DNA of 64,000 nucleotides from an uncultured Alphaproteobacteria bacterium (GCA_944391685.1 CALXUM010000003.1:9481-73480), one strand, 5' to 3'; positions 1,228 through 57,816 are shown, numbered from the stretch's first letter. Numbers and translations are program-made. Notes: generated by a model not told the origin, from the letters alone.

Positions 1228-2184
1228 TTGATAAAAAAACTGCTCTTTTTTTCAATATTAGTGTTGGTTGTTGTTTTTGCTCAAATTAAAATTTGGGTTA
1301 ATGAAGCCGGTAATCCTGGTGGACCGGTTAATGTGGTTATAAGCAAAGGTGAAAACTCGGGAATCGTAGCTCAAAAATTGACTGAAAACGGAGTGATTTC
1401 AAAGCCATGGTTGTTTAAAATGGCTGCACGTTTTAAGGGGTTGGATAAACATTTAAAGGCAGGAGAGTATCAATTTGTTAAAGGAATTTCTTTATCTGAG
1501 GTTATAAGGCAAATTGCTCAAGGTGATGTGTTTTTTCGTAAAATTACTTTACCGGAAGGTTTGACAGCTAAACAAATGTTGGAGATTATAAAAGAGGAGG
1601 AAGCTTTATCCGGAAAAGTTACAATTATTCCGCAAGAAGGTGAAATGCTGCCGGAAACTTATAGCTTTGTTTTGGGGGAAACTAAAGACAGTGTTATAAT
1701 GCAGGCTATGGAAGCAATGCAAAAAGTTAAGAAGCAAGCATGGGAAAACAGAGATGAAGGATTGCCCCTAAAAAATGTTGATGAAATGATGATTTTAGCC
1801 TCAATTATTGAAAAAGAAACGGCAATTCCTGCAGAACGACGTTTGGTTGCATCTGTTTTTGTTAATCGTTTGCGTAAGGGAATGCGTTTGCAGACAGATC
1901 CGACGGTTATATATGCTTTGACTAAGGGAAAAAAAGAATTGGAACGTAAGTTAACCAGAAAAGATTTAGAAATAGACAGTCCTTATAATACTTATAAATA
2001 TTATGGGTTACCTCCAAAGCCTATTTGTAATCCGGGGAAAGCCTCAATAGAAGCAGCGGTGCATCCGGAGATGTCTGATTATCTTTATTTTGTGGCAAAT
2101 GGAAGCGGAGGACATAGTTTTGCATTATCTCTTAAAGAACATAATAATAATGTAAAAAATTGGAAGAAAGTTCAGCAACAATAA
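1228..2184 (+). CDS. mltG: endolytic murein transglycosylase MltG (YceG family)
   Basis: TTG start, N-terminal TM helix, LKAGEY, ILASIIEKET, RLQTDPTVIYA and YNTYKYYGLPPKPICNPG motifs typical of YceG/MltG. The usual fabF-mltG neighbourhood. Confidence 0.85.
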   Translation: MIKKLLFFSILVLVVVFAQIKIWVNEAGNPGGPVNVVISKGENSGIVAQKLTENGVISKPWLFKMAARFKGLDKHLKAGEYQFVKGISLSEVIRQIAQGDVFFRKITLPEGLTAKQMLEIIKEEEALSGKVTIIPQEGEMLPETYSFVLGETKDSVIMQAMEAMQKVKKQAWENRDEGLPLKNVDEMMILASIIEKETAIPAERRLVASVFVNRLRKGMRLQTDPTVIYALTKGKKELERKLTRKDLEIDSPYNTYKYYGLPPKPICNPGKASIEAAVHPEMSDYLYFVANGSGGHSFALSLKEHNNNVKNWKKVQQQ

Positions 2185-2474
2185 TTTATGTTGCAAAAAA
2201 ATTAGATTTTTTTATAATGCGATTTACAAAAATATTATTGAGATAAGAATTGTTAAACTTAAAACTAGAAGCCATGAAAACATTTTTGCAAAAGATTTCG
2301 TTTGCGGCACAATGTTTGGGGTTTGTGAGTATGCAGTTGGTTGCACCGCCACCACCAAAGTATGTGCGTCGTATGGCCGAGACAAGGAGTAAAATTCGTC
2401 AGGCGGAAAAGACACAAAAAAGAAAAGTAAATCGTCGCGGTTTTCGCGGTAAATAAATTTAAAAAATATTTTTT

Positions 2475-2717
2475 ATGGATAGCTTAGAAGAAAGAATTGT
2501 GGCAATAATTAGAAAAAATTGTTGCTATGGTGGGTTAATTCTTCCCACGGATAACCTAAAGAATGATCTCGGCATGGATAGCTTGGATAAGATGGCAATG
2601 ATAATTGACATTGAAGGAAAATTCAATGTTCAATTTGTTGGAGAAGATGATGAAAAACTGAATACAGTTGAGGATGTAATTGATTACGTCCGAGCGGAGA
2701 TTCGTGTACAAAAGTAA
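2475..2717 (+). CDS. acyl carrier protein-like protein (80 aa)
   Basis: ACP size and a phosphopantetheine-attachment type motif NDLGMDSLDKMAMIIDIE (DSL serine), acidic C-terminal helix. No obvious SD upstream. Confidence 0.6.
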   Translation: MDSLEERIVAIIRKNCCYGGLILPTDNLKNDLGMDSLDKMAMIIDIEGKFNVQFVGEDDEKLNTVEDVIDYVRAEIRVQK

Positions 2718-2722
2718 AAATT

Positions 2723-2749
2723 AAGGCATCTTTTGAGATGCCTTTTTTT
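2723..2749 (+). terminator. rho-independent terminator after the ACP-like gene
   Basis: AAGGCATC (2723-2730) / GATGCCTT (2737-2744) followed by a T-run. Confidence 0.6.
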
Positions 2750-3245
2750 ATGCTTGACCGATGGTGGTCATGGTTATGGGATAAAGTGCTTCCTGAGGAG
2801 ACATGCCTTTGGTTAAAACTACTTTGAAAACGGGATACATGCGTTCACATTCTTTGATGGCAATATTTATCATTTGTTCTAATTTATCGGCAAAATAAGT
2901 TTCCTCATCATTTATAATAACGGAGTGTTTGAAAACGGGAATGTTTTGTTCTGCCCAATAAGAAAAATGGCCAACCCAGAGTTCTTCATTGGCAAGGGCT
3001 AAGAGCTCAAAAATTTTGCTGCGATCTTCAATTTTGCAGTCAATATCCATAAGGCAGGATAAATGAAGACAGTGCATATTGGCTTCCCAGGCAAAAAACA
3101 ACAGCATGTTATTCCATTTGCCCTGAACTTCAACTACAACTTCATTGATGTTGCGGCGTTCAAGTTCAAAAGATTTTGACGCAAATATGGTTTCAACCAA
3201 ATCAATCGGGTTATATTCGGGGGCTAAGTTCTTTGCCAATTGCAT
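2748..3245 (-). CDS. YbjN-domain-like protein
   Basis: Start placed at the internal Met (MQLAKNL...). The pattern VEVQGKWNNMLLFFAWEANMHCLHLSCLMD...ELLALANEELWVGHFSYW resembles the alphaproteobacterial YbjN family as I remember it. The upstream 29 codons of the ORF-track call look non-coding. Confidence 0.5.
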   Translation of the reverse strand: MQLAKNLAPEYNPIDLVETIFASKSFELERRNINEVVVEVQGKWNNMLLFFAWEANMHCLHLSCLMDIDCKIEDRSKIFELLALANEELWVGHFSYWAEQNIPVFKHSVIINDEETYFADKLEQMINIAIKECERMYPVFKVVLTKGMSPQEALYPITMTTIGQA

Positions 3246-4280: not shown

Positions 4281-5418
4281 CATTATGGCTGAAGTTGCGA
4301 GTTTTTTGCAAAACTTTGTGGGCTCGTACCAATACTTCTACCGAAGAAGCATCACTGCGTTTTTTTTCTGATACGCAAGCAGATACGGTAAGTTTTAATT
4401 CTTTACGTTTGGGGTTATATAAAAAAGAGGCTCCAGCAATGGCTCGACGAATTATTTCCAAGCGTTCAAAAGTTTCATTTTTATCCATGTTTTTGTAAAC
4501 AATTACAAACTCATCAGGACTGTAGCGATATATGCTTTCATCTTTTTCAAGCTCAGAGATTTTGTTTGCAATCAGTTTGGTTAAAATATTACGAACACGT
4601 TTGCCAAAGCTTTCACCAATTTTATCGAAGTCATCGATACTTATAATGCCGATACTGTATTTGAGCGGAAAGTTTTTGGCATGTATCATGTAAGAATTGC
4701 GACTGGCAAGGTCGGTGAGCGAATCTTTGTAAGTTTCGTTATAAAGGTTTTGAGCAATTGAAATGCTAATGCATAAAATGGCACAGAAAAAGAATAGGCT
4801 TGGAGCAGAAGAGTTGTCGGCATAATAAAAGGCAAAAAAGACGCTCAAAAAGCTAAAGAAAAAAGCATAATCATTATTATTTCCACTACGAATCGCATTA
4901 GCAAAACAGGCAATAATTATAAAGGCAAAAAGAATATTGCCTAATAAATAAGGATATGCGGAAAAACCAAGGGCTATTTCACTATTGGTTAAATGTTCGG
5001 CAAGGGCATATTGGAAAAAAAGAGCTAAGAGCAGATAAATATTTGTACGGCAAAGAAGACGGCGGCGAGGCCAAAAATAAAAAATGGCAAGATTCAGGGG
5101 AGTGAAAAAATATAAATTAAGGTAAAAAGATGAACTTAAAAATGAAGTTCCAAGGCGAATCTTGATAAAGTTTAGTAAAATATAAGCAAGTGAAATACAA
5201 AGAATTATGAAAACAGGTTTGTTTTGATTAAAATAGAGCAAAGTTAAAAAACAGCCAAAGCTAAAAATATAAAACAATATGTGAAAAGTGTAGTTTGTGC
5301 TTTGAGAAAAAGGAGCGCTTATATAAAAACTGAGCAATCCCACGGCAAAAATTATTGAAGGGATAAAAATGTTGCGAATCAGCGGAATGATTTTTTCTAT
5401 ATAAGCAAACTTTTTCAC
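4264..5418 (-). CDS. multi-pass membrane protein with a degenerate GGDEF domain
   Basis: About 230 aa of hydrophobic helices, then a GGDEF-fold-like region ISIDDFDKIGESFGKRVRNILTKLIA...IYRYSPDEFVIVY. The signature reads SPDEF instead of GGDEF, and NDxxGH is replaced by GESFGK. Confidence 0.6.
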   Translation of the reverse strand: MKKFAYIEKIIPLIRNIFIPSIIFAVGLLSFYISAPFSQSTNYTFHILFYIFSFGCFLTLLYFNQNKPVFIILCISLAYILLNFIKIRLGTSFLSSSFYLNLYFFTPLNLAIFYFWPRRRLLCRTNIYLLLALFFQYALAEHLTNSEIALGFSAYPYLLGNILFAFIIIACFANAIRSGNNNDYAFFFSFLSVFFAFYYADNSSAPSLFFFCAILCISISIAQNLYNETYKDSLTDLASRNSYMIHAKNFPLKYSIGIISIDDFDKIGESFGKRVRNILTKLIANKISELEKDESIYRYSPDEFVIVYKNMDKNETFERLEIIRRAIAGASFLYNPKRKELKLTVSACVSEKKRSDASSVEVLVRAHKVLQKTRNFSHNVTSKA

Positions 5419-7496: not shown

Positions 7497-8135
7497 CTAT
7501 CGTCCCTTGGTATGGATGGAAATTGGAAAGTTTGAATTTTGGATAATGTTTTGGCAATCTTTTTTTATGGTGTTTTTATTAAAAACTATACCGTTGATGC
7601 CTAAACTTTGAGCGGAAAGAACGTTTTTTTCTTTGTCATCAATAAAAATCATTTCTTTGAAATCACAACCTAGTTGTCGGCGAACAGCTTCATAAATTTT
7701 GGGATTGGGTTTTAAGAGTTTTAATTTGTATGAAGCAAAACGAAACTGAGATTTTACCTGTTCGGGAGCGGTGCTTTGCAGCATGGGAAGAGCATTTGAT
7801 AAAATACAATTCTCTATTCCTTGTTTGGATAAAAATTCCATAGTATCCATGGTTTCGGTAAAAAATTTGCCAACACCTTGATGCAAGGCTTTGTTTATTT
7901 CAATTTTAGTTTTATTATCAAAAGGGATATTATATTCCTGGCAGAGATTTTGGCAAAATTGTTCATCATTAATTTGTCCTGACATGTAGGGATTATAATT
8001 AAATTTTTTGACTCCTCCCTTATCTATAAAACCTGCCTTGTCGGTAGTTTTAGATAAAGCCCATTGGTTTAGATAGTTTAAGGTGTATGGATATATGGCT
8101 TGTCCGACATCCCAAACGCAATATTTGATATTCAT
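7497..8135 (-). CDS. HAD-superfamily hydrolase-like protein
   Basis: N-terminal CVWDVGQAIY (motif I-like, second Asp not conserved) and C-terminal MIFIDDKEKNVLSAQSLGINGIVF (HAD motif IV-like). Confidence 0.55.
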   Translation of the reverse strand: MNIKYCVWDVGQAIYPYTLNYLNQWALSKTTDKAGFIDKGGVKKFNYNPYMSGQINDEQFCQNLCQEYNIPFDNKTKIEINKALHQGVGKFFTETMDTMEFLSKQGIENCILSNALPMLQSTAPEQVKSQFRFASYKLKLLKPNPKIYEAVRRQLGCDFKEMIFIDDKEKNVLSAQSLGINGIVFNKNTIKKDCQNIIQNSNFPISIHTKGR

Positions 8136-9080: not shown

Positions 9081-9109
9081 AAAAAGCTGTGCAATGAGGT
9101 TAATACAAA

Positions 9110-9140
9110 ACAGGTAGAAAAAACTTTATACCTGTTTTTT
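9110..9140 (+). terminator. rho-independent terminator
   Basis: ACAGGTA / TACCTGT stem followed by TTTTTT. Confidence 0.6.
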
Positions 9141-9180
9141 AGTACAACAAATTATTAAAATTTGTTTTTTATCAGAATTT

Positions 9181-9287
9181 TTGAAAGTCTTGGAATATAT
9201 ACAAAAAAAGCACCTCAAAAGGTGCATTATCAAAAATGGTGCGAGATACTGTGCAATTATCGGACTAATTTCTATGATGATTTTAAG
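9181..9287. repeat. tRNA-Leu-flank repeat, copy A (terminator flank + TGGTGC + conserved cassette left end)
   Basis: TTGAAAGTCTTGGAATATATACAAAAAAAGCACCTCAAAAGGTGCATTATCAAAAATGGTGC is near-identical (5 mismatches by hand) to 11950-12011, which abuts the real tRNA. It is followed by GAGATACTGTGCAATTATCGGACTAATTTCTATGATGATTTTAAG, repeated at 10584-10627. Confidence 0.8.
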
Positions 9288-9331
9288 CTTTTCAGTAAGA
9301 AAATTGAAATATTTAGAGAAAAGCAGAAAAC

Positions 9332-10327
9332 TTAACCATTTTGTTTTTTATTTTGATACATTTTTAATTTAAAAAAATCAGTTTTAGATGAATCATTGTT
9401 AGTTTTAGATGCAATTTGTACGTTAAAACAATCTGCTAATTCAGCTGTTATTTTATAATTATTATTTAAAACACCAGAATTATCAAGCGTGCTGATAATA
9501 AGATGAGGATTATTTAAATTTTTTTGAAAAGCTTCATCTTTATTTTTTGAATAAAATTTATCTCTATCCACTATTTTGATAATATTTCGTTTCTTTATAT
9601 CTTCAATATTATTTTTTTTGCAATACAAATACTGAATTTTTTGGATAGCTGTCCATTCGTGTCCAAATCTTCCATCCAAGCAAACGACGGGAACAAAGTT
9701 TTCTTTAGGTACAAAATAAGTATAGCTGTTTTCGTTTATTTTTTCCATAATAAACACATTTTTTTCTTCACCATTTATATAGGCCTTTTTTTTCCAATTT
9801 ATATTTTTTCCCTCTTTATCGTTGACTCTTAAAGCATAGAAATCTCTTTCGCTATCACTTTCGGTTGCAAATATAAAATTTCCTCTTTTTTCACCAAATT
9901 GATTAAGATTGCTGCTCGGTACTAATGTATCTCCCATAATTTCAGGAGGAATATTTGAAGTATGAGTTAGCAATTCAGGTGCTTTATTTTTAATTTCTTG
10001 AGCTTTTTTATCTCTTAAACTAATCAAATTACTCATTAATTCATCATATAATTCTCTTCCCAAAAAGACTTCCATATCCTTACACAATCTGGTAAATTCC
10101 CCATCATTGTGAAATCTATAATTTTTATTCTTAGAGAAAATATGAAAAAATAACTGACTATTTGTAAACCCAACAGCCTTACTGCAAGCCGAAAAGAAAT
10201 TTTCCCTTTCCTCATAAGTCCTACGCTCAAATTGTAGTTTCATATTTTCTAAAATATTTTCTAGAGAAGTTTCATCATGATTTTGGGTGTGATTATTTTT
10301 TTCTAATAATTTACTCATATCCATCAA
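9332..10327 (-). CDS. hypothetical protein (331 aa), very AT-rich cassette gene
   Basis: Long uninterrupted ORF in a roughly 25% GC segment bounded by repeat copies A and B. I recognise no motif. Confidence 0.55.
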   Translation of the reverse strand: MMDMSKLLEKNNHTQNHDETSLENILENMKLQFERRTYEERENFFSACSKAVGFTNSQLFFHIFSKNKNYRFHNDGEFTRLCKDMEVFLGRELYDELMSNLISLRDKKAQEIKNKAPELLTHTSNIPPEIMGDTLVPSSNLNQFGEKRGNFIFATESDSERDFYALRVNDKEGKNINWKKKAYINGEEKNVFIMEKINENSYTYFVPKENFVPVVCLDGRFGHEWTAIQKIQYLYCKKNNIEDIKKRNIIKIVDRDKFYSKNKDEAFQKNLNNPHLIISTLDNSGVLNNNYKITAELADCFNVQIASKTNNDSSKTDFFKLKMYQNKKQNG

Positions 10328-10464
10328 TATCCATTATTTTTTTCTATTGTTAGCAATAACAAATATATCTAAAATAGTAACATATCCATAAAAAGAAGTA
10401 AATACATTCATTCTTGAACATATTTTCAGGCCTTAAAATCAAAACAATTGCAAACAGCTAAACA

Positions 10465-10627
10465 AAAAGTCCGATAATCTCGCAAAAAACATCAAATTAA
10501 AAACATCTAAAATCGGACTCTTTGCAAGCCTTGGAATATATAGCAAAAAAGCACCTTAAAAGGTGCTACCTTAAAAATGGTGCGAGATACTATGCAATTA
10601 TCGGACTAATTTTTATGATGATTTTAA
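10465..10627. repeat. tRNA-Leu-flank repeat, copy B (cassette right end + terminator flank + TGGTGC + cassette left end)
   Basis: AGTCCGATAA (10468-10477)...ATCGGACTC (10512-20), then CCTTGGAATATATAGCAAAAAAGCACCTTAAAAGGTGC...AAAAATGGTGC (TGGTGC at 10578-83), then GAGATACTATGCAATTATCGGACTAATTTTTATGATGATTTTAAG. Confidence 0.8.
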
Positions 10628-10740
10628 GACTTTGAGTAGGAAAATGAATGAAAAATATAATTTTGTCTAAATAATGTGTTGTGTTAGCTTTAAAATTATG
10701 ATATATATAATTTATAATTTTGATATATAGGAGTTTTATT

Positions 10741-11241
10741 ATGACTTTAAGAGGTAAATTAGCCGAAGTAGCCCATAAAAGTGAAGAATCTAAACTTAGA
10801 GGTTCAGCACTTGCCATAGCAGAAAAGGAATCTGAAGGAGCATCTAAACTGAGAATAAACTTTAAAACCAATGAAAGTGAAGAAGAGAAACTTTTAGGAA
10901 AATGGGCTTACATGAATGTGGCTGAAGATGGTAAAAGTGTAGAGATTTTTGACAAAGATGGAGAAAGCTTAGGTCGTATACGCAGAAAAAATGAAGCTGA
11001 TGTCGCGGGAGATAATTATTTTCTTGAAACTAGTGATATGACCGTAGTGGGTCATAAAGAAGAAAAAGGTTGGACATTATATGATGTAACTAACAGAGGA
11101 TATAGTAATGTTAAGATTGAAAATGAACAACGAACAAAAGCGTTAAAGCCATTATTTCATGAAGCTCGTATGGCAATGAATTATCCCGGAGGACGCAGAG
11201 CTAGAGTAAATCCCATGGGAATAACACCCAAAACAAGATAA
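10741..11241 (+). CDS. hypothetical protein (166 aa), cassette gene
   Basis: AGGAG SD 7 nt upstream of the ATG at 10741 (the ORF-track TTG at 10720 is less likely). Charged, Lys/Glu-rich. No recognised motif. Confidence 0.55.
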   Translation: MTLRGKLAEVAHKSEESKLRGSALAIAEKESEGASKLRINFKTNESEEEKLLGKWAYMNVAEDGKSVEIFDKDGESLGRIRRKNEADVAGDNYFLETSDMTVVGHKEEKGWTLYDVTNRGYSNVKIENEQRTKALKPLFHEARMAMNYPGGRRARVNPMGITPKTR

Positions 11242-11265
11242 TTTTAGTAAAGTTTATTGATATCG

Positions 11266-11297
11266 ACCCTCGTTATAAAAAAACGAGGGTTTCTTTG
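11266..11297. terminator. bidirectional hairpin terminator between convergent cassette genes
   Basis: ACCCTCGTT / AACGAGGGT 9-bp stem with A/T runs on both sides. Confidence 0.6.
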
Positions 11298-11312
11298 ATA
11301 AAAAATATAAAA

Positions 11313-11837
11313 TTAACTTTCAAGTTTTATATACTTTGGAGGAATAACACCGCCTTTAATGATAAGAAGATAGTAGGGTACAAATTCAAAGCGATGATGT
11401 AATTTATCATTGCATAGACTCCAATCAATTGGATATTGGCTTATATCATTTAATCCATATAATCTGATTAGAACTTCATCAGCATTATTGCTTTCTTTTA
11501 AATTTGGCATATTAGCTACAGAAGGGCTAAAATAAATATCATCTATTAAACCATCTCTCTGCAAAGCATCAATATCTATTGAAAATAAATCAGCTTTTTC
11601 AACGAAATCCTTCAATGATAGAGAATTTTTATTCCATTGTATTGGTTCAGTAAAAACTCTTACAGCTCGGCTACGACCTTTAAAACAGCTTTCAAACCAC
11701 CTCAATATACCTTTAAACGTACTAGAACCTGAACGCCGAATATAATACTTTAAGTTAGCATCTGGATTTTTAGCAAAAGATAGAAGTCCTTTTTCAAGAA
11801 TAGTATTTCCTTTAGGAGCATAATGGTACAACTTCAT
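11313..11837 (-). CDS. hypothetical protein (174 aa), cassette gene
   Basis: Start moved to MKLYHYAPKG (AGGGAA SD-like upstream). No secure family assignment. Confidence 0.55.
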   Translation of the reverse strand: MKLYHYAPKGNTILEKGLLSFAKNPDANLKYYIRRSGSSTFKGILRWFESCFKGRSRAVRVFTEPIQWNKNSLSLKDFVEKADLFSIDIDALQRDGLIDDIYFSPSVANMPNLKESNNADEVLIRLYGLNDISQYPIDWSLCNDKLHHRFEFVPYYLLIIKGGVIPPKYIKLES

Positions 11838-11892
11838 CTTTTTTCCCTTATTTTGTAATATTATCATATAATTATAACTTTATTTCAATAAT

Positions 11893-12011
11893 AAAAGTCC
11901 GATAAGTTTATAAAAATCATCAAATTAAAAATCCTCAAAATCGGACTCTCTGAAAGGCTTAGAATACATACAAAAAAAGCATCTCAAAAGGTGCATTATC
12001 AAAAATGGTGC
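11893..12011. repeat. tRNA-Leu-flank repeat, copy C (cassette right end + native terminator flank, contiguous with the tRNA 3' end)
   Basis: AGTCCGATAA (11896-11905)...ATCGGACTC, then CTGAAAGGCTTAGAATACATACAAAAAAAGCATCTCAAAAGGTGCATTATCAAAAATGGTGC running into the tRNA. Confidence 0.8.
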
Positions 12012-12092
12012 ACCTAGCCAGAATCGAACTGGCACGTCCTTGCGGACAACAGATTTTAAGTCTGCAGCGTCTACCTGTTCCGCCATAGGTGC
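12006..12092 (-). tRNA. tRNA-Leu, anticodon TAA
   Basis: Reverse complement GCACCTATGGCGGAACAGGTAGACGCTGCAGACTTAAAATCTGTTGTCCGCAAGGACGTGCCAGTTCGATTCTGGCTAGGTGCACCA. It has a 7-bp acceptor stem GCACCTA/TAGGTGC, anticodon loop CTTAAAA, a long variable arm, T-loop GTTCGATTC and an encoded CCA. 87 nt. Confidence 0.9.
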
Positions 12093-56656: not shown

Positions 56657-57816
56657 TTTTTAGAATTTTGGTAAAATTCTATATGATGATTTTTAGGGTT
56701 GTAACCAATTGAAAGTTCACCGTTTCTGAGTTTTAGAGCTTGAGAACCAAAAATTTCGTAACGCCAACCTTGAAGAGCAGAACAATCATTATCTTTGAAA
56801 GAGCTTAGTTTGGATAAATCTTCGTCAGAAGCGATAACTCTGGCAACGACTTTATTTTGTTGACTGATGATTTTTAGTAACATTTTTAATAGTTCCGATA
56901 AAGGGGAATTTTGTGAAAAAGGAATCTTTATTTCAGGAGGTGTTACATATTCTTCAGGGGGAATGTTAATTGCTTGCTTAATCACTTCAACAATCTCATC
57001 TCCCAGTTTTCCGGCAGCAATGTCTTTAGGTAAAGAACGAATCTCCGATAATTCTTCTTTGTTTTGCGGACAAGAAGAGCAAATGGTTAGCAAAGCTTCG
57101 TCTTTTATATAACGTTGACGGGGAATATTTCGTCGTTGAGAACGTTCTTCCCGCCAAGCAGCCAGCTCACGTAATATAGTTAGAAATCTGGCATTATGTG
57201 AATGATGGCGAATCCTTTTCCATGCATCTTGCGGATTAATAATATAATTTGACGGATTGTTCAGAATAGCCATTTCTTCGTCAATCCAATGTAAGCGATT
57301 ATTCTTTTCGAGATAATCTTTAAGATAAGTGTATATATTTACCAAATGAGTAACATCAGAGAGGGCATATTCAAGTTGTTTATCATTTAGAGGTCTTTTG
57401 CTCCAATCGGAAAGACGAGAGCTTTTGTCAAGCGTTATGCCTAAAATGCTTTTTACCAGATTTTCATAACTGATGCTTTCTCCGAATCCACAAACCATGG
57501 CGGCAATCTGAGTATCAAAAAGAGGGGTGGGAATTTTTCCGCTTAAATTGAAAATTATTTCAATATCCTGACGTCCGGAATGAAAAACTTTGGTAACGGA
57601 TTTATTTTGCATTAAATCAAAAAAAGATTGTAAACTGAGCCCTTCAGATAAAGGATCTATGATGGCACATTTTTTTGATGAGCCTATTTGAATAAGACAT
57701 GGTTTGGCAAAATATGTTTTTTCACGCAAAAACTCAAAATCAACGGTAACAAAGGGTTGTTTAGATAAGCTAGAACATAATGTTTCCAGCTCAGAAGTTT
57801 TATCAATAAAATTCAT
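56653..57816 (-). CDS. rnd: ribonuclease D
   Basis: DEDD exonuclease motifs (VTVDFEF, KVFHSGRQDIE, YALSDVTHL) plus an HRDC-like C-terminal part. 387 aa. Confidence 0.85.
   Translation of the reverse strand: MNFIDKTSELETLCSSLSKQPFVTVDFEFLREKTYFAKPCLIQIGSSKKCAIIDPLSEGLSLQSFFDLMQNKSVTKVFHSGRQDIEIIFNLSGKIPTPLFDTQIAAMVCGFGESISYENLVKSILGITLDKSSRLSDWSKRPLNDKQLEYALSDVTHLVNIYTYLKDYLEKNNRLHWIDEEMAILNNPSNYIINPQDAWKRIRHHSHNARFLTILRELAAWREERSQRRNIPRQRYIKDEALLTICSSCPQNKEELSEIRSLPKDIAAGKLGDEIVEVIKQAINIPPEEYVTPPEIKIPFSQNSPLSELLKMLLKIISQQNKVVARVIASDEDLSKLSSFKDNDCSALQGWRYEIFGSQALKLRNGELSIGYNPKNHHIEFYQNSKN

Follow-up and report, generated by a model that had tools for sequence, protein, structure and literature searches.

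Small gene cassettes without a recombinase gene arranged in tandem behind tRNA-Leu in an uncultured gut alphaproteobacterium

In staphylococcal cassette chromosome (SCC/SCCmec) composite islands, Ccr large serine recombinases insert elements of 10-60 kb at the 3' end of one conserved gene, rlmH (orfX), where the elements stack in tandem separated by direct repeats and recombinase-less members (psiSCC) sit in the same arrays (PMC9430635). Much smaller units are collected by integrons, which have an IntI-type tyrosine recombinase with an adjacent attI and Pc promoter and promoter-less cassettes that each carry one attC site, an imperfect palindrome of 60-140 nt that folds as a single strand. Related arrays lacking an integrase are known as CALINs. 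Accretion of integrative elements at tRNA or gene 3' ends, including that of the tycheposons of Prochlorococcus, involves site-specific insertion at tRNA genes, with newer elements pushing older ones outward and leaving degenerate remnants and integrase-less cargo units flanked by att repeats (10.1101/2020.12.28.424599). In SSV-type 'suicidal' archaeal tyrosine integrases, integration cuts the integrase gene at its own attachment site, so the integrated and free forms encode different proteins (PMC8371274).

Here, a stretch of 64,000 nt from an uncultured Alphaproteobacteria bacterium (GCA_944391685.1 CALXUM010000003.1:9481-73480; the window) was examined, in which region 9181-12011 includes a short tandem array of two AT-rich cassettes, plus the stump of a third, behind tRNA-Leu(TAA). 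The initial annotation had described three copies of a 62-nt repeat bounding two cassettes with three ORFs, and this was confirmed. Copies A and C match at 57/62 positions (the five mismatches counted in the initial annotation), B and C at 52/62, and A and B at 48/62. The conserved cassette start is present twice (56/62 identical over 62 nt), as is the cassette end (46/58 identical). ORFs of 331, 166 and 174 aa are present, though a mechanical ORF list gives 331, 173 and 184 aa with upstream starts. The GC content is 27% and 30.5% in the cassettes as compared with 36.6% for the window. The repeats are not a generic intergenic repeat, as in the whole 1.57-Mb genome the modules occur only here and at one other array, on contigs C14 and C16 behind tRNA-Thr(GGT). 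The features of the locus are listed in the table.

Table. Features of the cassette array behind tRNA-Leu(TAA), in positions of the window.
Position	Strand	Feature	Details and basis
12006..12092	-	Intact tRNA-Leu(TAA)	T-loop to 3' end (AGTTCGAT-N12-CA-CCA) is the B-type half of the attachment site; ARAGORN, Rfam and half-site comparison
11950..12011		62-nt repeat, copy A
12006..12011	-	GCACCA (TGGTGC on the + strand), tRNA 3' end and crossover core, copy A	Identical copies at 10578-10583 and 9237-9242; homology between cassette copies in different genomes breaks here
11950..12005	-	Core A, cassette-borne spacer	Terminator-like hairpin GCACC/GATGC with one mismatch; native flanks of relatives differ
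11896..11947	.	Inverted-repeat pair A, AGTCCGAT-N36-ATCGGACT, 52 bp	Size and symmetry of a serine-integrase attP; probably an accessory binding site
11313..11837	-	Cassette 2 cargo, 174-aa protein	Family of over 245 members with no Pfam domain; AF2 model with pLDDT 89; weak top structural matches are DarT and KptA/Tpt1 (ADP-ribosyltransferase fold)
10741..11241	+	Cassette 2 cargo, 166-aa protein of unknown function	13 homologues; always accompanies the 174-aa gene; terminator-like hairpin follows at 11265-11291
10578..10670	+	Right end of cassette 2	P-type half-site (TGGTGC-N17-ATCGGACT) and 30-codon relic of the recombinase C-terminal tail (WCEILCNYRTNFYDDFKTLSRKMNEKYNFV-stop)
10522..10583		62-nt repeat, copy B
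10522..10577	-	Core B	Terminator-like hairpin AGCACC/GGTGCT followed by a T-run
10468..10519	.	Inverted-repeat pair B (AGTCCGAT-N36-ATCGGACT)
9332..10327	-	Cassette 1 cargo, 331-aa protein	24 homologues, no Pfam domain; AF2 model with pLDDT 81; beta-rich domain at about residues 117-260 weakly resembles ADP-ribosyltransferase folds
9237..9335	+	Right end of cassette 1	P-type half-site plus 32-codon tail relic (WCEILCNYRTNFYDDFKLFSKKIEIFREKQKT-stop)
9181..9242		62-nt repeat, copy C
9181..9236	-	Core C	Terminator-like hairpin GCACC/GGTGC followed by a T-run
9124..9180 (approximate)	.	Degenerate remnant of a third inverted-repeat pair (ATCAGAAT in place of ATCGGACT)	Truncated left end of an older cassette (62% identity; left-module HMM positions 1-71 only); abuts the yeaD terminator hairpin at 9101-9144

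The conserved unit is longer than the initial annotation had described, about 180 nt, and comprises a 52-nt inverted-repeat pair, the ~56-nt core with a terminator hairpin, TGGTGC, and ~90 nt of coding-like sequence. Nor are the 56 nt that follow the tRNA its native terminator flank, as had been supposed. The closest relative with an empty site has a different flank, and the same hairpin-bearing core bounds cassettes behind tRNA-Thr in other genomes; hence, the core is carried by the cassette. It most resembles the native flank of tRNA-Thr(CGT) in this genome. The distal end of the array has no recognisable native flank, and a profile search for remnants of older cassette junctions between queA and yeaD found none. 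Among RNA families in Rfam, only the tRNA was found. Searches of Pfam, PADLOC, PHROGs and NCBIfam with the three ORFs gave nothing usable, nor did a profile search of solved structures.

The array itself lacks a recombinase, as the initial annotation had noted. However, a cognate recombinase does exist on another contig of the same genome. Contig C14 (positions 1501-3045; genomes are given G numbers, this one being G000, and other loci compared are given L numbers) carries an intact gene for a 514-aa large serine recombinase (LSR) with resolvase, recombinase and zinc-ribbon domains. The protein matches PF00239 at 58 bits, above the cut-off, and includes the RVSS serine motif, and its orthologue at L059:8001-9548 matches PF00239, PF07508 and PF13408. 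The gene reads through AGTCCGAT-N36-ATCGGACT and ends inside tRNA-Thr(GGT). In 35 genome loci and 72 metagenome loci, orthologues (>80% identity) abut tRNA-Thr(GGT) or a cassette right end, and in L148 and L172 they abut tRNA-Leu(TAA) beside psd. No LSR relative was found in viral contigs, and no circular contig with terminal overlap was found among the LSR contigs.

The ~180-nt junction module is a relic of the 3' end of the LSR gene. In the autonomous element, which belongs to an ~8-9 kb family and carries a weak Rep-like gene and an R-M system, the crossover point lies inside the LSR gene, about 30 codons before its stop. After integration, the body of the gene ends in the tRNA (..DKWCR-stop), and the last ~30 codons (the tail, WC(E/A)ILCNYRTNFYDDFK.L..KIE..) lie at the far end of the element. 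Each cassette keeps only these two end modules around unrelated cargo, the tRNA-proximal end, with the hairpin and the 52-bp symmetric site, corresponding to LSR codons KSPI...LSD, and the distal end including the tail relic. Several lines of evidence show that the tail is coding. Paralogous LSRs in this genome have a contiguous homologous tail, and contiguous LSR and tail ORFs exist in L122, L129 and L140. The entropy for positions 1, 2 and 3 of codons 11-25 is 0.88, 0.66 and 1.26, respectively, and the synonymous/non-synonymous ratio is 0.64, as compared with 0.28 in the other frames. Of 37 tails, 33 stay open for 24-40 codons.

The geometry of the ends is consistent with a serine integrase. 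The motif is spaced as AGTCCGAT-N17-CA in cassette and element right ends, as AGTCCGAT-N12-CA in tRNA-Thr and as AGTTCGAT-N12-CA in tRNA-Leu; by comparing junctions, the crossover could only be confined to GCACCATTT. The spacing agrees with the reported shift of the zinc-ribbon motif by 5 bp toward the centre in attB relative to attP (PMC3783163), though for the left half-sites only, as the right halves are A/T-rich, followed by a hairpin, and show no such motif. A reading of the cassette right end as a decayed tRNA 3' half was rejected, since it is ~6 nt too long and does not fold as a T-arm. The 52-bp pair is not the crossover site, as its central dinucleotide varies (CA, TA, CG, TT, TC, AT, AC), and LSR elements and empty sites place the crossover at GCACCA. 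Symmetric B-type sites with a spacing of about 26 nt were sought and not found. The exact motif pair occurs in 28 of 56 genomes of the genus and in 93 of 151 genomes sampled from the order, across 17 of 20 genera, whereas all reversed-pattern controls gave none, and the spacing is N36 in 72 of 79 pairs.

The possibility that the repeats are attC-like or att sites of another recombinase, such as an integron-type or island-type tyrosine integrase or a transposase, was also considered. The genome includes six tyrosine recombinase genes, two of them next to other tRNAs, and a homologue of the 331-aa gene lies in a tyrosine-integrase island with a tRNA-Leu 3' fragment in another genome (L107). However, none of the six genes is linked to the modules, the modules are homologous to the two ends of the LSR gene itself, LSR orthologues are the only recombinase consistently adjacent to such junctions in over 100 loci, and genes in the cassettes lie in both orientations. 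This alternative is therefore regarded as very unlikely.

Serial insertion at the tRNA 3' end, which the initial annotation had proposed to be either site-specific or homology-driven, is supported, and site-specific insertion is what the comparative data show. Cassette 2 is 92% identical at tRNA-Thr(GGT) in L108, and is the second cassette, followed by an LSR fragment, in L109/L110. It is 94.6% identical at tRNA-Leu in L191-L197, where psd/pssA are only 76% identical and where it occurs alone or with a different second cassette. The boundaries lie at GCACCA(TTT). In L101/L102, the cargo pair alone (78% identity) lies in a context without repeats, which delimits cargo from end modules.

An alternative is that each cassette is what remains after internal deletion of a full LSR element that integrated on its own, so that the mini-cassettes never moved as such and the array is now inert. 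Truncated LSR genes and fragments are indeed frequent in arrays (C16:1100-1790 in this genome, L075, L076, L086 and many metagenome loci), a third left end in the window is degenerate, and two cassettes in L109/L110 are fused by loss of ~75 nt of junction. Most genomes with cassettes lack a close LSR orthologue, with none at E<=1e-20 in G014, G004, G006 and G018. However, this does not fit with the finding of the same LSR-less cassette, with the same two end modules, at two tRNAs and at first and second array positions. Furthermore, one 'short-core' left-end type, with a terminator in place of 29 nt of LSR coding sequence, is shared by many cassettes with unrelated cargo across genera, which indicates a propagating lineage of mini-elements. 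The fossil reading is therefore thought unlikely.

Cassettes could instead be gained, lost and swapped by RecA-dependent recombination, for example after DNA uptake, with the junction modules acting as portable homology. The repeats are long (60-180 nt) and 77-93% identical, and arrays persist in genomes without the LSR. In addition, near-identical copies of cassette 2 carry different 56-nt cores, and in L191 identity to cassette 2 of the window ends at the tRNA-proximal arm of the inverted-repeat pair and not at GCACCA, so the core was swapped independently. This points to an additional exchange process, perhaps homologous recombination. However, homology cannot explain first insertion at a naive tRNA-Leu or tRNA-Thr end, where only GCACCA(TTT) is shared, nor the exact N36 and N17/N12 spacings kept while the sequence between varies, nor the constant orientation of all junctions. 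As the sole explanation, it too is improbable.

The most probable explanation is that the cassettes are non-autonomous, stripped-down derivatives of the LSR elements, inserted by site-specific recombination at the 3' end of tRNA-Leu(TAA), and that the LSR copy at tRNA-Thr(GGT) in this genome, or LSRs of incoming elements, would move them in trans. No recombination was observed, and catalysis by the LSR is inferred, as are a role of the tail in activity and the functions of the cargo. Canonical serine integrases do not recombine attL with attP, and growth of the arrays would therefore need a property not yet shown; the tandem arrangement suggests that the junction next to the tRNA stays usable as a target, which would depart from the canonical rule. 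If this reading holds, a whole family of human and animal gut Alphaproteobacteria uses an LSR and tRNA 3' ends to collect very small gene cassettes, a role associated until now with integrons and, on a much larger size scale, with SCC elements, and the three orphan AT-rich genes in the window are explained as horizontally moved cargo. The system would offer compact natural attP/attB pairs with a clearly readable half-site code, a recombinase whose C-terminus depends on its integration state, which may bear on how serine integrases control direction, and a catalogue of short accessory genes from uncultured organisms, some with nuclease, Fic, GNAT or possible ADP-ribosyltransferase folds.

A more speculative possibility, which is considered doubtful, is that this is a serine-recombinase counterpart of the integron, with the tRNA 3' end as the permanent docking site and a ~200-bp attP module on each 1-1.4 kb cassette. 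Only the left half-site would distinguish attP from attB, so that the tRNA-proximal junction stays a usable target and cassettes stack and unstack without a directionality factor. The recombinase gene, cut by its own site, would give three forms of the enzyme, free (own tail), tRNA-adjacent (no tail) and array-internal (tail lent by the neighbouring cassette), as a built-in switch of activity in which the symmetric 52-bp site would act as an accessory site.

No published description of such an array was found. As in the SSV-type integrases, the recombinase gene is cut at its own attachment site, but this is a serine recombinase in a bacterium, only the last ~30 codons are removed, and a neighbouring cassette can restore an equivalent tail in frame (L129); self-disrupting recombinases have been stated to be known only from archaea (PMC8371274). 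The general layout may resemble that of tycheposons, but those rely almost entirely on tyrosine integrases (910 of 937 elements; 10.1101/2020.12.28.424599) and their repeats are partial tRNAs, whereas the repeat here shares only 6-9 nt with the tRNA and the rest is element sequence.

Like integrons and CALINs, the arrays are ordered and co-oriented, with very small cassettes that each carry their own recombination module, diverse accessory cargo (e.g. GNAT, Fic, NERD, APH and R-M genes) and, in many cases, no recombinase nearby. However, the anchor is a tRNA gene without an attI/Pc platform, and no tyrosine recombinase lies next to either array in this genome, although IntI-specific features of the six genes elsewhere (PF00589) were not examined. 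As judged without an attC covariance model, the junction is not a folded attC, being homologous to LSR coding sequence and not a known RNA or structured family. The cassette genes may have their own promoters, although promoter-like sites are no more frequent than in shuffled sequence.

SCC islands share with this locus the use (here inferred) of a large serine recombinase at a gene 3' end, tandem stacking between direct repeats and recombinase-less members. The best NCBIfam match of the LSR is CcrB (E=3e-25), but at 88.9 bits it is far below the family cut-off of 900. The locus further differs from SCC in its tRNA target, the single recombinase in place of a CcrA/CcrB pair, the size of the cassettes (1-1.4 kb with 1-2 genes), the splitting of the recombinase gene by its own attachment site, the extra symmetric 52-bp site, and the alphaproteobacterial host.

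ARAGORN identified a single tRNA gene in the window, tRNA-Leu(TAA), and three copies of a 62-nt segment (A, B and C) lie downstream of it, toward lower coordinates. Copies A and C match at 57/62 positions, B and C at 52/62, and A and B at 48/62. Each copy ends in TGGTGC, which is GCACCA on the tRNA strand and represents the last two acceptor-stem bases, the discriminator and CCA. A conserved cassette start (56/62 identical over 62 nt) is found to the right of B and C, and a conserved cassette end (46/58) to the left of A and B, while a degenerate third end left of C abuts the yeaD terminator. The two units delimited in this way carry ORFs of 331, 166 and 174 aa, and have a GC content of 27% and 30.5%, as compared with 36.6% for the window. 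The initial annotation, which described two AT-rich cassettes with three ORFs stacked behind the tRNA and bounded by three repeat copies, is thus confirmed. Though all genomes examined are metagenome assemblies, misassembly is unlikely, as the array is on one contig with unique cassettes and cassette 2 recurs next to tRNA-Leu in independent assemblies. BLAST and profile searches of the whole 1.57-Mb assembly found the modules only here and at one other place, the start of contigs C14 and C16, which together form an array behind tRNA-Thr(GGT). Hence, the modules are not a generic repeat.

Coordinates of features in the window and of related features at other loci
Feature	Location	Coordinates	Strand	Description
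tRNA-Leu(TAA)	window	12006-12092	minus	
62-nt copy A	window	11950-12011		
Hairpin of copy A	window	11950-11990		GCACC/GATGC, one mismatch
Core compared with that of L191	window	11948-12005		GCACC..GGTGC hairpin
174-aa ORF	window	11313-11837	minus	cassette 2
166-aa ORF	window	10741-11241	plus	cassette 2
62-nt copy B	window	10522-10583		
331-aa ORF	window	9332-10327	minus	
62-nt copy C	window	9181-9242		
Degenerate third cassette end	window	about 9124-9180		left of C, abuts the yeaD terminator
HAD-like gene	window	7497-8135	minus	212 aa, next to yeaD
Truncated LSR copy	C16	1100-1790		3' half of the gene
Small GC-rich insert	L117 (C16 of the same genome)	4425-4690		
Native flank of tRNA-Thr(CGT)	L118 (C5 of the same genome)	57142-57260		resembles the cassette core
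Small GC-rich insert	L023	10880-11128		
Small GC-rich insert	L191	4850-5072		
Core of cassette 2	L191	4850-4911		CCGCA..TGCGG hairpin
Fused cassettes	L109	1060-1130		
Fused cassettes	L110	290-360		
Tyrosine-integrase island	L107	1816-3033		homologue of the 331-aa gene

The second array includes an intact gene for a 514-aa large serine recombinase (LSR), which lies on C14 and runs toward tRNA-Thr(GGT). The LSR has a resolvase domain scoring above the Pfam cut-off, and its orthologue also has the recombinase and zinc-ribbon domains. The ORF reads through an AAAAGTCCGAT-N36-ATCGGACT motif with the same spacing as in the cassette end of the window, and stops two codons into the tRNA 3' end (..DKWCR-stop, TGGTGCCGCTAG). 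A truncated second copy of the LSR 3' half on C16 is followed by GCACCA and a sequence like the cassette start of the window. The cassette end therefore corresponds to LSR codons KSPI...LSD and downstream sequence, now interrupted by stops.

The cassette start represents the missing end of the same gene. When read on the LSR strand, from TGGTGC into the cassette, all 37 distinct right ends collected from this and related genomes encode WC(E/A/G)(I/L)LC(N/S)YRT(N/K)(F/N)Y(D/E)(D/E)FK.L..KI(E/D).., and 33 of the 37 stay open for 24-40 codons before a stop. Beyond the half-site, variation is concentrated at third codon positions, the entropy for positions 1, 2 and 3 of codons 11-25 being 0.88, 0.66 and 1.26, respectively. 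Single-base codon differences were synonymous 1395 times and non-synonymous 2163 times, as compared with 878/3077 and 826/2916 in the other two frames. Three paralogous LSRs encoded in the same genome, which are about 37% identical, have a contiguous C-terminal tail after the equivalent tryptophan, with a similar acidic/aromatic pattern, and at three further loci (L122, L129 and L140) a full-length orthologue runs straight into such a tail in one ORF. It was concluded that the crossover point of this element family lies inside the LSR gene, about 30 codons from its end, and that integration next to a tRNA removes the tail, which is supplied by the free form or by a neighbouring cassette. Any effect of this on enzyme activity is inferred.

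Comparison of junctions confined the exchange to GCACCATTT. In the tRNA-Thr array of the same genome, the tRNA junction reads TAGCGGCACCATTTA followed by TCAG, the internal junction TCGCGCACCATTTA followed by TCAG, and the last junction TCGCGCACCATTTA followed by ACAAAAAGGCCTCC, which continues into the native tRNA-Thr terminator seen at empty sites. Similarly, at L191, a tRNA-Leu(TAA) locus in another genome that carries cassette 2, the distal junction of this cassette is GTATTGCGCACCA followed by ACAAAAAACACTC, again a native-type terminator. However, the array in the window ends in a truncated module rather than a native flank. Small GC-rich inserts of ~130-170 nt, each flanked by a duplicate of the tRNA 3' end plus a terminator, also lie behind tRNA-Thr(GGT) and tRNA-Leu(TAA) in many relatives, including downstream of tRNA-Leu at loci L012, L014, L022, L029 and L030. 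Cassettes and LSR elements insert at either copy of the tRNA end. No Rfam match was found for these inserts, which may represent a separate miniature element that targets the tRNA 3' end.

In every right end, AGTCCGAT lies 17 nt before the CA of GCACCA, whereas in tRNA-Thr(GGT) the T-loop supplies AGTCCGAT 12 nt before the same CA, and in tRNA-Leu(TAA) it is AGTTCGAT at 12 nt. A 5-bp inward shift of the zinc-ribbon-domain motif in attB relative to attP is the published hallmark of serine integrase sites (PMC3783163). Only this left half of each site shows the motif, the right halves being A/T-rich and followed by a hairpin. Among the tRNAs of the genome, Thr(CGT), Thr(TGT) and Leu(TAA) are among the closest to Thr(GGT) over the last 30 nt, and all end in GCACCA. 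Arrays occur behind Thr(GGT), Leu(TAA) and Thr(CGT) in the genomes examined.

The 52-bp inverted-repeat pair, AGTCCGAT-N36-ATCGGACT, has the length and symmetry of a full attP (two P-type halves, N17-NN-N17). The spacing is N36 in 72 of 79 pairs found with one mismatch allowed per arm, and no pair has attB-like spacing. As the inner sequence varies widely and the central dinucleotide is not conserved, the pair is unlikely to be a crossover site. Nevertheless, it keeps its two arms in cassettes where the former coding frame is full of stops, which argues for selection on the DNA, and it is inferred to be an accessory LSR binding site. At L109 and L110, loci in other genomes, two neighbouring cassettes are fused, and about 75 nt of the junction (GCACCA, the core and the first AGTCCGAT arm) is missing, which leaves AGTCCGAT-N47-ACCGGACT.

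The 56-nt core next to the tRNA, considered in the initial annotation to be the terminator flank of the tRNA, is borne by the cassette. The empty tRNA-Leu(TAA) site of the closest relative (G006, tRNA 98% identical) is followed by TAAAAAAAACCTCCTGTTGGGAGG, and other relatives have further different terminators. The GCACC/GGTGC hairpin core instead recurs at every junction of tRNA-Thr arrays in other genomes, for example at four junctions in genome G014. Other cassette subfamilies have a different hairpin (CCGCA..TGCGG) at the same position, and the common feature is a terminator-like hairpin plus T-run just after the tRNA end, which would replace the terminator displaced by the insertion. Unlike those of copies B and C, the hairpin of the tRNA-proximal copy A has a mismatch, and was not called in the consensus terminator scan. 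The core most resembles the native flank of tRNA-Thr(CGT) in this genome (TTTTTTAATCAGCACCCGTTGAGGTGCTTTTTTTT), which may be the source from which the core was copied, or a solitary core left by an excision. In genome G011 (locus L014), a solitary cassette-type core (TTTATTAAGGTAGCACCTTTCAAGGTGCTTTTTT) follows a duplicated tRNA-Leu 3' end about 130-170 nt downstream of tRNA-Leu, with no inverted-repeat pair or cassette, and may be a scar of cassette loss.

Direct evidence that the cassettes in the window move was provided by comparison of genomes, in the absence of read-level or experimental evidence of recombination. Cassette 2, consisting of the 166-aa and 174-aa genes with both end modules, occurs at 92% identity immediately behind tRNA-Thr(GGT) at locus L108, and as the second cassette of a tRNA-Thr array, followed by an LSR fragment, at L109/L110. 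It is also found at 94.6% identity over window positions 10578-11947 behind tRNA-Leu(TAA)-psd at L191, L193, L195 and L197, where the adjacent tRNA-psd-pssA region is only 76% identical. In those genomes, it is either the only cassette (L191) or is accompanied by a different, methyltransferase-bearing cassette (L192), whereas the window has the 331-aa cassette instead. The 94.6% identical copies in L191 and the window carry unrelated 56-nt cores, and identity drops exactly at the tRNA-proximal arm of the inverted-repeat pair. Some exchange must therefore occur there, either by homologous recombination between conserved modules or by a second site-specific event. The cargo pair alone, without end modules, lies at 78% identity in an unrelated chromosomal context (L101/L102, homology 10693-11841), which separates cargo from modules. 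Intact LSR elements occupy the very same tRNA-Leu(TAA)-psd site at L148 and L172, with the junction ..HKWC/TWPE...

A homologue of the 331-aa gene lies near queA in another genome (locus L107), in a tyrosine-integrase island with a 59-nt tRNA-Leu(TAA) 3' fragment. Two different recombinase systems therefore use the same tRNA and share cargo. In one relative (G007), tRNA-Leu is followed directly by queA, and in others yeaD lies on a different contig from tRNA-Leu, and the whole queA-to-tRNA-Leu interval is therefore variable. The HAD-like gene next to yeaD is 68% identical to a gene that forms a cassette of its own in the tRNA-Thr array of a relative (G018, locus L027). No junction remnants flank it in the window, and it may be an old, assimilated cassette.

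The exact motif pair is present in 28 of 56 genomes of the genus, and in 93 of 151 genomes sampled from the order (17 of 20 genera, all in one family), while every reversed-pattern control gave zero. Record titles identify the hosts as uncultured gut Alphaproteobacteria from humans and animals. Close LSR orthologues, full or partial, are present in only a minority of genomes of the genus, and several genomes with arrays have none, so many arrays are currently without the enzyme inferred to act on them.

A typical autonomous element (locus L059, ~8.5 kb) carries the LSR, a HaeII-type restriction-modification pair, DUF3768, a weak rolling-circle Rep match and a phosphoribosyltransferase-like gene. 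Cassettes elsewhere carry GNAT, Fic, GIY-YIG-like, DUF4379, APH-like and NERD genes, along with many unknowns. The three proteins encoded in the window match no family in the libraries searched. The 174-aa protein belongs to a family of over 245 members, and its model (pLDDT 89) has DarT and KptA/Tpt1 as its best, but weak, structural matches (E about 0.05, TM 0.43-0.46), which were not found with a sequence profile. The 331-aa protein (24 homologues, pLDDT 81) has a beta-rich domain in its model that weakly matches ADP-ribosyltransferase folds (E 0.03-0.3). These assignments are tentative.

The way in which arrays would grow is the least secure step. Canonical serine integrases recombine only attP with attB, but here the two site types seem to differ only in the left half-site, and the right-hand sequence of the cassette imitates a tRNA terminator flank. 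If the enzyme does not discriminate the right halves, then the tRNA junction of an occupied site still behaves as attB, and every internal junction behaves as attP. This would allow repeated insertion next to the tRNA, and excision without a directionality factor. Arrays in which cassettes lie between the tRNA and an intact LSR element (L129, L109) fit this, but do not prove it.

Full-text searches found no description of such arrays. The same kind of array had been found earlier at tRNA-Thr in two other genomes, and compared with these the tRNA-Leu site, the half-site geometry, the split recombinase gene and the cassette identity across sites and species are new. The closest known systems include SCC elements, in which serine recombinases, tandem arrays and recombinase-less members are likewise found, and SCC composite islands show that serine recombinases can build tandem arrays that include recombinase-less members (PMC9430635). 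Integrons and CALINs share the small cassettes, each with its own site, and further comparisons can be made with accretion at tRNA genes, including tycheposons (10.1101/2020.12.28.424599), and with integrases split by their own attP (PMC8371274). The array described here does not appear to be a member of any of these.
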